Below are positions 57,485 to 60,932 of a DNA stretch of 64,000 bases, piece by piece (position 1 is the stretch's first letter; each line of letters starts with the position of its first letter). The translations under genes and the position numbers were made by a program. Under the pieces are notes generated by a model that saw only the letters and a list, made by a program, of their open reading frames with translations, was not told the origin of the DNA and ran no database searches. The stretch spans positions 992,001 to 1,056,000 of the forward strand of contig CM000433.1 in NCBI GenBank assembly GCA_000165345.1, in the 5' to 3' direction.

Positions 57485-58311
57485 TATGAATATTGCTAAT
57501 TAAATTATTTTTTAAAATTTGAATACAATTATGAAAAAAATTTAAAAATACTTATATATATAAATTAAATATTTTATTTAAATTAAATTTATTTTAATTA
57601 TTAAACGTGATTATATTTTGCTCGAGAATTTTTATAATTTATTTAATAAAACAAAACATTTATTTAAATTAATGAATATTATTACAAGTAAAAATAATAG
57701 AATAAAATATTATTTTTAATAATAACCCGCCATATACATTTTAATTCATTATTAAAATTACATCATTTAAAAATTTGTCCTAATAATTTGAAAATCATTG
57801 AATTTTTTTTTCTCACAGACACCCCTTCAATTCTTTTTCGCACCACCCTTAATTTTTTTCTCACACCCCCCTCAATTTTTTTTTTTCTAATGCACCTTTC
57901 TTAATTAAAACTTAAAATGAAATAATTATTAATAATATTCATGATTTAAAATAAAATATATATTCTTTTTTGTCTTTTCTTTTTTTTTTTTTAATAGTTT
58001 AAGTCAAGTTATTAAATTTGGAATTAAAAAGAAAGAAAAAAAAAAACATTTATAAATTATATGATTAACAATAATATTTAATTAATAATAAAAATTAGAA
58101 AAAAATAACTATAATATTTTTCAGTATATTTGTTTATATAATAGATCTTATTATTAATTTTTTTTTTACTATGAAAAAATTATAAGAAAAAAAAAAAGAT
58201 CTCGAAAAATAATAAAAAATAAAAATAAAAATATTAAATAAATATAATTAAAAAAAATGGTAAATTAAATATTTAATATCAATGAATATTATAGTTGTAG
58301 ATATATAAATT

Positions 58312-58341
58312 TAATATATATATATATATATATATATATAA
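58312..58341. repeat. (AT)n microsatellite
   Basis: tatatatatatatatatatata. A second (AT)n lies at about 58909-58933. Confidence 0.9.
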
Positions 58342-59165
58342 ATATATTTTTTGTAAAAAATTATAATAAAATTATTTTATGATCTTATCTTTAAATTCTT
58401 GAAATATCGATTCATGCAATTTAAGATATAAAATAAATATATATAGATAGATTTTGCATGCCGACAAGACTGAATCAATTAATTAATTAATTAATTATAT
58501 CACTTTTATCTAGCTTAAGATCATACTAATATAAATCAGTATTACATAATTTAATTTATTATTTATTAAAAGAAAGAAAGAAAAAAAAATGTTTTCTTTT
58601 TTTTTTTTTTTGATTGAATAATAAGTTACTGGAAGAATATATTTGAAAAGAATTTAGTTGATGGCTATATATAATAATCAAAAATAAAAACATCCCGTTA
58701 TTGTTATTACAACTCATTAATAATTTTTATAATTTCCTTTTAATAATTAATAGTATTCAACATTTAAAATGGTGAATTAAAAATTTGATTAAATTTTAAA
58801 ACAAAAATATTTCATGAGTGAGTAACAACAACTTAATATTAACAATATGTTTTTTTTTAAATAATATTTGAAATAAATAATAATTAATGTGTATGCAATA
58901 TAATAATTGATATATATATATATATATATATATCAAATATATTATTAATATGTATATATATACTTGCAAATTATATATATATTCAATATATTAATATTTA
59001 TTTCAAATATTTTTAAAAGATCAGAATGAATGAATGAGAATAAAAAAAAAAAAAGAAGAAATAACAATATTATCAATAAAGTAATAATAATGAAATAATG
59101 ATAATAGTAATAGTAATATTAATATTAAAAGCAATGTTTATTAAAGAATTAATGATAATGATAGT

Positions 59166-59280
59166 AATAATAATAATAATAATAATAATAATAATAATAA
59201 TGATAACAATAATAAATGATTAAAAACAATATTATTAAATTAATAATAACAATAATAATGAAAAATGGTAATAAGAATAA
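59166..59280. repeat. Left arm of a large inverted repeat ((AAT)n plus an 85-bp unique segment)
   Basis: 59196-59280 is the exact reverse complement of 59740-59824. I checked this base by base. The flanking (AAT)n mirrors the (ATT)n outside the right arm. Confidence 0.85.
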
Positions 59281-59739
59281 TAATAATAATAATAATAATA
59301 ATAATAATGATAGTAATAATGATAATAATAATAATAATAATAATAATAATAATAATAATAATGAGAAATGGTAATAATAATAATAATAATAATAATAATA
59401 ATAATAATAATAATAATAATAATAATAATTAATAGTAATAACATCAGAAAAAAAATATTGTCAATTTTTTAAAATATTATTATTGTTTAACAATAAATTA
59501 TTTTAAAAAATAACAATACTTATTAATAAAATAAAATATTGATCATCAATATTTTTGATTTATTAATACTGATATTTATGAATTACTAAGTATATTATTA
59601 TTTTTATAATTATTATTCTTATTATTGCTCTTAATATTCCTAATACTCTTATTATTCCTATTCCTGTTATTATATTATTATTATTATTCGTATTATTTTA
59701 AGTGTTATTTCATATTATTAATATTATTATTATTTTTTA

Positions 59740-59863
59740 TTATTCTTATTACCATTTTTCATTATTATTGTTATTATTAATTTAATAATATTGTTTTTAA
59801 TCATTTATTATTGTTATCATTATTATTATTATTATTATTATTATTATTATTATTATTATTATT
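59740..59863. repeat. Right arm of the same inverted repeat (85-bp unique segment plus (ATT)n)
   Basis: Reverse complement of 59196-59280. The spacer between arms is about 460 bp and is itself (AAT)n-rich. Confidence 0.85.
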
Positions 59864-60452
59864 TTATTGTCATTTCTTATTATTAATGTTATTATTTTAA
59901 ATATTATTTCATATTATTAATATTATTAATAATATTATTCTTTTTTTTTTTATTCTCATTTATTCATTTTATTTCATTTTTTTTTTCTTCAGAACTCTTG
60001 AAAAAAATATTAAATCAATAATAATATGGTAATATTTCAATATTATGGATCATTTAATAATATTTGGTAAAAAATAGAAATGTGAAATAATGATTGGAAT
60101 ATATTTAAAATAAAATATATTATTTAGTTCAGAAATGAAATTGGTTTTCATTTTTAACAATTAATATGTAATAAATACTAATTTTATGTTAATATTATGG
60201 AATTATGAATGGATATTTCAAATATTAATGGATAAAATTCTTATGTTTTTTGATTAAATATTATTGGTTTTTATTTCTTCTATTTTTTTTTTTTTAAATA
60301 ATAAAGATATGAATTCAAATCATCAATATGTATTCAATAATAATCATAAATAAATATTTTCAATAATGATCAAGTTTGAAATATATTCTAATATTATTGA
60401 ATATTAAAGCATCATAGTAAATAAAAATCAAATTAAAAAAAAAGTTAAAAAA

Positions 60453-60880
60453 NAAAGAAAAGTANAAAAAAATTAAAAAAAAAAAAGANGAAATNAAAGT
60501 NATAANAANAAAAAGAANGNAAGNATACTNAAANTTGAAGGAAAAAAGNAATCAAATNAAAACTTGNAAAAAAGAAAAAAAAAANTTAAANNANANACNC
60601 TCAAAAATTNCTAACCAAAATTATAACAANANTANNNNTNTCGNTNNANCANNATTANTATTATTTNCTTTAATAANNATGNNCNACTNATANTNATCNA
60701 TNACTANCTTNTNAATACCTTAATTTTTCATTNATTAAGNTTNTTTTCAACCATAAAAANTTGTTTAAAATGAATTTTANAAATAANTCGNNTCTANAGG
60801 ATATNTTTACNTATATAATNTAATTNAAAAAAANNNGNNNNCNCTTTNCTTTNNCTTTNTTNCTCCCACTTTTNATNTTA
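60453..60880. other. Low-quality, N-peppered, extremely A-rich segment
   Basis: Dozens of single n characters in oligo-A-rich sequence. The ORFs reported across it are artefacts. Confidence 0.9.
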
Positions 60881-60932
60881 NTAATAATTAACAATTATCA
60901 AAATAAATTATTTATTTTATTAAAATAAAATA

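Follow-up and report, generated by a model that had tools for sequence, protein, structure and literature searches.

A 3.4-kb gene-free, AT-rich interval in a duplicated subtelomeric block of Cryptosporidium parvum, and the palindrome within it

The window analysed here, 64,000 nucleotides (nt) of Cryptosporidium parvum DNA from assembly GCA_000165345.1 (contig CM000433.1, positions 992,001 to 1,056,000 of the forward strand), carries towards its right-hand end a spacer of about 3.4 kb that is very rich in A and T and in which no gene is recognisable. Two open reading frames (ORFs) tie the locus to C. parvum Iowa II, those of 262 amino acids (aa; 53448-54236, minus strand) and 272 aa (56666-57484, minus strand), which match proteins EAK87288.1 and EAK87289.1 exactly; the GMP synthase gene (GMPS) at 54601-56655 on the plus strand is cgd5_4520 of the 2004 reference. 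On its left the tract is bounded by the ATG of the 272-aa gene, whose product is a signal-peptide protein with the UniRef name 'Variable surface protein', and on its right by the gene for aspartate-ammonia ligase (AsnA, cgd5_4540, PF03590), an ORF at 60933-61943 on the minus strand in this window. Because both of these genes lie on the minus strand, in tandem, the tract represents the 3' side of AsnA joined to the 5' side of the 272-aa gene. The preliminary description of this DNA had placed the tract between two convergent or divergent gene pairs, which is correct for the pairs themselves (GMPS and the 272-aa gene are convergent on the left, AsnA and a plus-strand 141-aa gene divergent on the right) but not for the two genes that border the tract directly.

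The segment from 57485 to 60932 is, as had been claimed, the longest interval of the window without an ORF of at least 100 aa. Its 3448 nt compare with 1332 nt for the second-longest such interval; in the chromosome (Chr) 5 part of the window the median is 341 nt. At a lower threshold the result is the same: no ORF of at least 70 aa occurs in the tract, either in the window or in the clean IOWA-ATCC and C. hominis versions of the sequence, and the tract ORFs of 50-69 aa translate microsatellites into poly-I/N/Y/L. No coding signal was detected in the tract, a tRNA search found nothing there, an Rfam search gave no match even at E<=1, and the telomere repeat TTTAGG is absent from it. A scan for bacterial-type promoters and terminators, which is not meaningful for a eukaryote, returned AT-rich noise only. 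None of five assemblies has an annotated gene between AsnA and the 272-aa gene, and in the IOWA-ATCC annotation (CPATCC) the genes to the two sides are numbered consecutively, 0004460 and 0004470.

The right-hand boundary has to be moved slightly. Sequence errors at 60971-60980 give AsnA a false extension of eight codons, so that the frameshifted C-terminus (window 60956-60980) reads GDYRRYFIIFLKKIL instead of NMMEDTL and the ORF has 336 aa rather than 328 aa; the same errors in its 3' end are the reason why the AsnA of the window has no exact protein match. The true stop maps to 60956. Position 60932, previously taken as the end of the interval, is the stop of the frameshift-extended ORF, and the true non-coding spacer, from the ATG of the 272-aa gene to the true AsnA stop, is therefore 57485-60955. 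Close by, at 60453-60881, lies the low-quality zone that had already been recognised from its undetermined bases. It contains 79 Ns and indel errors and represents poor Sanger sequence of the 2004 reference, with many indels relative to three clean assemblies; it is clean, for example, in records L002 and L003 of our comparison set.

Outside this zone the sequence is well corroborated. The tract recurs, with a length of 3411-3434 nt, in four independent C. parvum assemblies: IOWA-ATCC (PacBio), BGF (Oxford Nanopore Technologies, ONT), CP029786 and HLJ, a Chinese isolate. Once the N zone is set aside, IOWA-ATCC and CP029786 depart from the window only in a couple of homopolymers, by a single base each, and HLJ differs from it by microsatellite unit changes and a dozen substitutions. 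Since the four assemblies give about the same length, the tract is not a collapsed repeat. The region is nevertheless hard to sequence, with Ns, contig ends and A/T smoothing among its symptoms. C. hominis short-read contigs stop about 470 nt into the tract, and the BGF telomere-to-telomere (T2T) assembly (CP141118) has, in the equivalents of window 57940-58186 and 60474-60668, nearly all G, C and minority bases smoothed to A/T relative to three assemblies, a pattern suggestive of faulty consensus calling or polishing in multi-copy DNA of low complexity. The trouble that Sanger, short-read and nanopore assemblies have had here would be explained by the low complexity together with a long purine run and the palindrome described below.

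The chromosomal setting differs from that implied by the contig. In chromosome-scale records the locus lies 19-40 kb from a chromosome end, and in the T2T assemblies CP044422 and CP141118 the distance from the tract to the end is 26-30 kb, with the large-subunit (LSU) rRNA directly proximal to the locus and the block that contains the tract distal to the rRNA unit. The window aligns to the T2T assemblies only from position 52413 onwards, and a 100-N scaffold gap occupies 52313-52412, exactly where the match ends; the rRNA unit expected after this junction is missing from the window. The 2004 reference joined the Chr 5 core (1-52312) to a multi-copy block of Chr 1, 7 and 8. In the portions available to us, earlier reports describe this block as MEDLE - TrpB - AsnA - GMPS - rRNA, about 35 kb long and present in three to four copies more than 97% identical at the ends of Chr 1, 7 and 8, and state that the old reference put it on Chr 5 without map support (PMC8744675, PMC12179316, PMC11685829, PMC4637869). 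The same portions confine the block to some ends of these three chromosomes (PMC8744675, PMC11685829), with up to four copies, both ends of Chr 7 included, and consider that it may have been duplicated via break-induced replication. The suggestion that the tract is a subtelomeric spacer is borne out by its distance from the chromosome end and by its position inside this duplicated block.

The GC content of the tract is 12.9% in the window and 12.3% in the clean IOWA-ATCC copy (3435 nt, L003 6566-10000). To call it essentially A/T only is a mild exaggeration of a tract that is indeed hyper-AT, given that it has two GC-containing islands (57796-57896 and 58441-58485), the only ones in it. Perfect simple sequence repeat (SSR) and homopolymer runs make up 20% of it, compared with 4.7% of core spacers, and all the repeat types named beforehand are present. 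They comprise (AT)n at 58301-58347, which is 18 nt longer in isolate HLJ, and at 58910-58962, on the outer edge of the palindrome; (AATT)5 at 58476-58498, one unit longer in HLJ; (AAT)n at 59060-59441 and (ATT)n at 59593-59954; and runs of oligo-A and oligo-T. An A-rich purine run of low complexity, (A)nG/(A)nGT on the plus strand at 60419-60600, is hard for both Sanger and ONT sequencing.

This composition is a property of the region, since all spacers of the block are equally AT-rich: they range from 9 to 17% GC and pool to 13.1%, compared with 23.3% for the Chr 5 spacers of the same window. Coding sequence follows suit, at 21.6% GC in the block and 27.9% in the Chr 5 part. The C. parvum genome as a whole has about 30% GC (PMC4637869, PMC1779779), so the premise of a hyper-AT protist genome does not hold; only this block is hyper-AT. 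GMPS contains two long poly-Asn/Asp insertions encoded by AAT repeats of the kind found in the spacers, so that the bias of the block towards AT and microsatellites is felt in coding sequence too. A second gene-free spacer, 3.5 kb long and 13.5% GC, lies 2.3 kb away between TrpB and the 141-aa gene (L003 704-4222; it starts at about 63301 in the window and extends beyond the window end). With a second hyper-AT spacer of 3.5 kb so near, the tract is not a unique island.

These observations bear on two functional proposals that its composition invites. Plasmodium centromeres are hyper-AT tracts of about 2 kb with about 97% AT, and the superficial similarity to them was the attraction of a centromere-like reading, in which CENH3 would be recruited to a short, extremely AT-rich tract in a regional centromere of the Plasmodium type; as late as 2024 the position of the C. 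parvum centromere was still called unknown. A centromere of that type is represented by one such tract per chromosome. The block, in the descriptions available, is instead restricted to Chr 1, 7 and 8, in up to four copies and at both ends of Chr 7; a comparable tract lies 2.3 kb away; the AT content is 87-88% rather than about 97%; and the published CENH3 CUT&RUN profile consists of about 400 dispersed GA-rich sites with no regional centromere. We regard the probability that the tract is a centromere as close to nil.

A replication origin of the AT-island kind, in the manner of fission yeast, would be a long intergenic AT island that is bound by the origin recognition complex (ORC) and easily unwound. 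In composition the tract has what such an origin requires: it is 3.4 kb long and 87-88% AT, whereas the spacers of this genome average about 0.5 kb and about 75% AT (the published mean intergenic distance is 504-566 bp), and its long asymmetric A/T runs and a palindrome that is predicted to be easily extruded would favour unwinding. However, every spacer of the block has the same composition, so that length alone singles this tract out, and its substitutions are neutral, as set out below. We therefore consider an origin here improbable.

The tract contains a palindrome of about 0.95 kb. Its left arm (59025-59487, plus strand) consists of (AAT)n and unique sequence and its right arm (59512-59968, in inverted orientation) of the corresponding (ATT)n on the plus strand; the two adjoin at about 59500, practically without a spacer, and are 79% identical, gaps included. 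A core of 80 nt, at 59202-59281 in the left arm and 59739-59818 in the right, is 100% identical between them. The inverted alignment scores 446, compared with 46-49 in control orientations, and the self-reverse-complement score of 947 compares with a maximum of 310 in block shuffles. Folded in silico as single-stranded DNA, the palindrome has a predicted energy of -228 kcal/mol (z = -25.6). It is also found in C. hominis, where it measures about 1.27 kb, and in smaller form in a C. meleagridis assembly. The idea that both large spacers of the block contain palindromes was ruled out, the TrpB-141aa spacer having none. A foldback element or miniature inverted-repeat transposable element (MITE) was considered as well: no second copy of the palindrome core occurs in the 64-kb window or in the other loci compared, and the edges of the palindrome are fuzzy, so that no target-site duplication is callable.

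The history of the two arms can be read from their comparison between species. Within the 80-nt core the arms are identical to each other in C. parvum and again in C. hominis, and every difference between the species is mirrored in both arms; outside the core the arms have diverged from each other by more than from their orthologues. The C. hominis right arm keeps an extra, older-looking, diverged copy. We interpret this pattern as arm-to-arm gene conversion of the core, which is usual for long inverted repeats.

The equivalent of the tract is 4013 nt long with 11.5% GC in C. hominis and about 3 kb with 13.4% GC in the C. meleagridis assembly (GCA_039657295). The latter (records L017-L020) shares 96-99% identity with C. 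parvum over the stretch from GMPS up to the left arm of the palindrome and only about 79% beyond it, and its AsnA is truncated; introgression, a mosaic assembly or reference-guided scaffolding are possible causes of this pattern. A contig of 3.7 kb from a third Cryptosporidium species (L010, from Logan SRR18693150) has an AsnA of 81% identity, followed by 1.3 kb that is free of ORFs and, beyond this, a GMPS-like segment without an intact ORF (L010 2690-3140); the 272-aa gene is absent from it, and nothing in it resembles the tract. The tract can thus be traced with confidence no further back than the parvum/hominis/meleagridis group.

Between C. parvum and C. hominis the coding sequences of AsnA and GMPS are 98.6% and 98.8% identical, and their fourfold-degenerate sites differ at 3 of 72 and 5 of 109 positions, respectively (4.2-4.6%). 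From 58100 to the AsnA end of the tract, 135 of the 2683 aligned sites differ (5.0%), and the published intergenic identity of these species, 95%, is like the value for the tract. The alignment of the tract has 878 gap columns in 55 gap runs. Comparison within C. parvum gives 3.4 substitutions and 4.3 indel events per kb of tract, a level of polymorphism equal to that of the TrpB-141aa spacer and above the coding rate, and the length of the tract changes fast through microsatellite slippage, with SSR lengths polymorphic between isolates. Judged by these comparisons, substitutions in the tract accumulate at the neutral, fourfold-site rate, and the profile is that of unconstrained DNA.

This profile is relevant to the question of whether an unannotated transcript fills the interval, either a long intergenic non-coding RNA (lincRNA) or, less likely, a spliced protein-coding gene. 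C. parvum lincRNAs have been reported to be AT-rich, later annotations add hundreds of long non-coding RNAs (lncRNAs), and a GCATGCA island situated some 970 nt 5' of the 272-aa gene could, as a predicted regulatory site, drive something other than that gene. The lack of any ORF of at least 70 aa in either species and of any Rfam match argues against such a transcript, as do the neutral substitution rate and the frequent indels; moreover, introns are rare in this genome, and six unique 16-mers of the tract are missing from the portion of the published lncRNA sequences that was available. A transcript spanning the interval thus seems very unlikely.

Sequence signals may be present at the ends of the tract, above all on the left. 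Upstream motif families known in C. parvum include the G-box (G.GGGG, KKGRGGGGRR), AP2_1 (BGCATGCAH) and E2F (GGCGGG) (PMC3734150), and the G-box-like motif KKGRGGGGRR is bound in vitro by the ApiAP2 protein cgd8_810 (PMC3734150). The first GC island contains a G-box-like array at 57812-57875, three tandem 23-nt units that read TTGAGGGGGGTGTGAG, TTAAGGGTGGTGCG and TTGAAGGGGTGTCTGTGAG on the sense strand of the 272-aa gene (minus); the first of them fits KKGRGGGGRR (TTGAGGGGGG). The C. meleagridis assembly likewise has three units, whereas C. hominis has five. In the second island, the segment 58455-58476 carries GGCATGCAA on the minus strand, which matches the AP2_1-like BGCATGCAH exactly; all 22 nt of this segment are shared unchanged by C. 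parvum, C. hominis and the C. meleagridis assembly. Closer to the gene, an E2F-like TGGCGGG at 57726-57732 fits the E2F core. These motif matches, which are the basis of the assignment, suggest that the left ~1 kb of the tract is an extended promoter of the 272-aa gene.

The 272-aa gene evolves quite differently from its neighbours. Between C. parvum and C. hominis it is 79.6% identical in nucleotides and 56-61% in amino acids, whereas the flanking genes are about 99% identical in nucleotides. The high divergence continues for 256 nt upstream of the gene and ends abruptly at about 57740, beyond which identity is about 95%; in 100-nt windows adjoining the gene it is 56-60%, and across the whole gene-proximal 600 nt about 73%. 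The protein is 97.8% identical to that of C. meleagridis and only about 60% to that of C. hominis, so that the gene tree conflicts with the species tree. Another variant occurs in a public read set (L009), and at least three allelic types exist in public data; the diverged sequence is represented by window 56666-57739, by L008 10001-10818 and by L009. Because the divergence stops so abruptly, we take the gene and its proximal promoter or 5' untranslated region (UTR; 57485-57739, minus strand) to be a single cassette, either exchangeable or fast-evolving, with its edge within the tract, the sequence shared by C. parvum and C. hominis starting at about 57740.

The homogenised palindrome core and the sharp boundary at about 57740 are both signs of recombination, as had been anticipated for a recombinogenic subtelomeric spacer, and they raise the question of whether the tract is itself a recombination or fragility element. 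In such a model the palindrome and the AT-microsatellites would act as a hot-spot for breaks and template switching, and would promote exchange among the three or four block copies and swapping of the variable secreted-protein cassette. The core homogenised arm-to-arm in two species, the strong predicted single-strand fold, the abrupt switch in identity and the disagreement between the 272-aa gene tree and the species tree are all in line with this, as is the duplication of the block among chromosome ends, for which the available reports entertain break-induced replication. The divergence boundary, however, is 1.3 kb away from the palindrome and no breakpoint maps to the palindrome; the Chr 1 and Chr 8 copies are collinear across the tract, at 98.8% identity; and within C. 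parvum the tract is no more polymorphic than the palindrome-free spacer next door. We consider a fragility element unlikely.

The reading that we favour, and hold to be likely, is that the tract is a genuine non-coding subtelomeric spacer, large and unconstrained, that has been swollen by simple repeats and a palindrome. Its size would be the outcome of relaxed constraint in a subtelomeric, AT-biased domain, in which expansion of (AAT)n, (AT)n, (AATT)n and oligo-A runs would have inflated the middle of the tract and one ancient inverted duplication would have produced the palindrome of about 0.95 kb, kept partly homogeneous by presumed gene conversion between its arms. Sequence signals would probably be confined to the two ends, namely the putative promoter in the left ~1 kb, with its E2F-like site, G-box-like array and GCATGCA island, and what are presumably the 3'UTR and terminator of AsnA on the right.

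Several points weigh against this reading or parts of it. The promoter assignment is drawn from motif matches only; just one of the three G-box units of C. parvum fits the strict G.GGGG, the other two being degenerate; and perfect conservation of 22 nt is not significant against a background identity of about 95%. There may be some dependence of the C. meleagridis assembly on C. parvum, and it was used with caution as a separate witness. The interval may harbour a long non-coding RNA or a replication origin. Finally, the survival of the palindrome since at least the split from C. meleagridis, together with its absence from the similar neighbouring spacer, could mean that it is maintained for a reason and not merely tolerated. 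The boldest version of this last argument, a long shot in our estimation, is that a conserved, concertedly evolving AT palindrome of about 1 kb, set within an AT island, is a functional subtelomeric element that acts either as an origin or as a programmed site of fragility from which break-induced replication starts. Were this true, it would be the palindrome that causes whole chromosome ends to be copied among Chr 1, 7 and 8 and the adjacent gene for a variable secreted protein to turn over.

The tract is a real gene-free interval of about 3.4 kb, among the largest in a genome that has been described as lacking extended intergenic regions. The 2004 reference, short-read assemblies and an ONT-based T2T assembly have each mis-sequenced it in a different way, and its block was wrongly attached to Chr 5 in the old reference. 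The significance of the analysis is thus mainly one of housekeeping for Cryptosporidium genomics, which includes the removal of a centromere candidate that is attractive but almost certainly wrong. Both the palindrome and the two GC islands, with their G-box-like array and GCATGCA motif, had been missed in the preliminary description; they are new details, of a known sequence kind, in a block already described. The palindrome and the sharp boundary beside a hypervariable secreted-protein gene offer modest leads on sequence exchange between duplicated chromosome ends.

Other features of the window touch the tract less directly. The 141-aa secreted protein (62875-63300) is made of three tandem repeats of about 33 aa, with a consensus of approximately NESKVSHDGITPCGNxTPNCVGGYYITDNQSDTN, and no Pfam family is recorded for it. 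A 399-aa ORF of the window has no exact protein match. In the Chr 5 part, two minus-strand ORFs of 2283 and 2756 aa (35762-42613 and 42616-50886) adjoin across 2 nt in different frames and could together represent a single giant gene, interrupted by a frameshift or a small intron. Also in the Chr 5 part, 29000-33000 has 17-21% GC and is mostly coding (ORFs 27827-31117 and 31231-32577), with a lone N at 31119.

How the tract compares with better-known systems depends on which of its properties is considered. With the centromeres of Plasmodium falciparum, another apicomplexan, it shares a gene-free extent of a few kb, a very high AT content and short imperfect repeats. It differs from them in that it does not occur once per chromosome, is subtelomeric, is less extreme in AT content and has a twin tract nearby, and in that CENH3 is reported to be dispersed in C. 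parvum.

The palindrome is best compared with the long AT-rich palindromes of other genomes, such as the palindromic AT-rich repeats (PATRRs) of human 11q23 and 22q11, and with the palindromes of the primate Y chromosome. It is much smaller than the Y palindromes, and its arms are largely trinucleotide microsatellite. Inverted, AT-rich arms with almost no spacer are common to these structures, and so are the potential to form a hairpin or cruciform (in silico in our case), a core homogenised within species and polymorphism in size.

At the level of the chromosome, the tract is part of the duplicated block of Chr 1, 7 and 8 (Baptista et al. 2022, PMC8744675; BGF T2T, PMC12179316), in which it lies between the AsnA and GMPS genes, distal to the rRNA cluster, and the misplacement of that block in 2004 is still visible in the window as the 100-N gap. 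The portions of these two papers available to us cover the genes and copy number of the block and make no mention there of the spacer, the palindrome or the motif islands. At the level of regulation, the islands match the cis-motif families known from C. parvum (PMC3734150) and stand 240-970 nt upstream of the 272-aa gene, on its sense strand. What sets them apart from these families is that a G-box-like motif is here arranged in a 23-nt tandem array whose copy number varies (three or five), unusually far upstream for so compact a genome.

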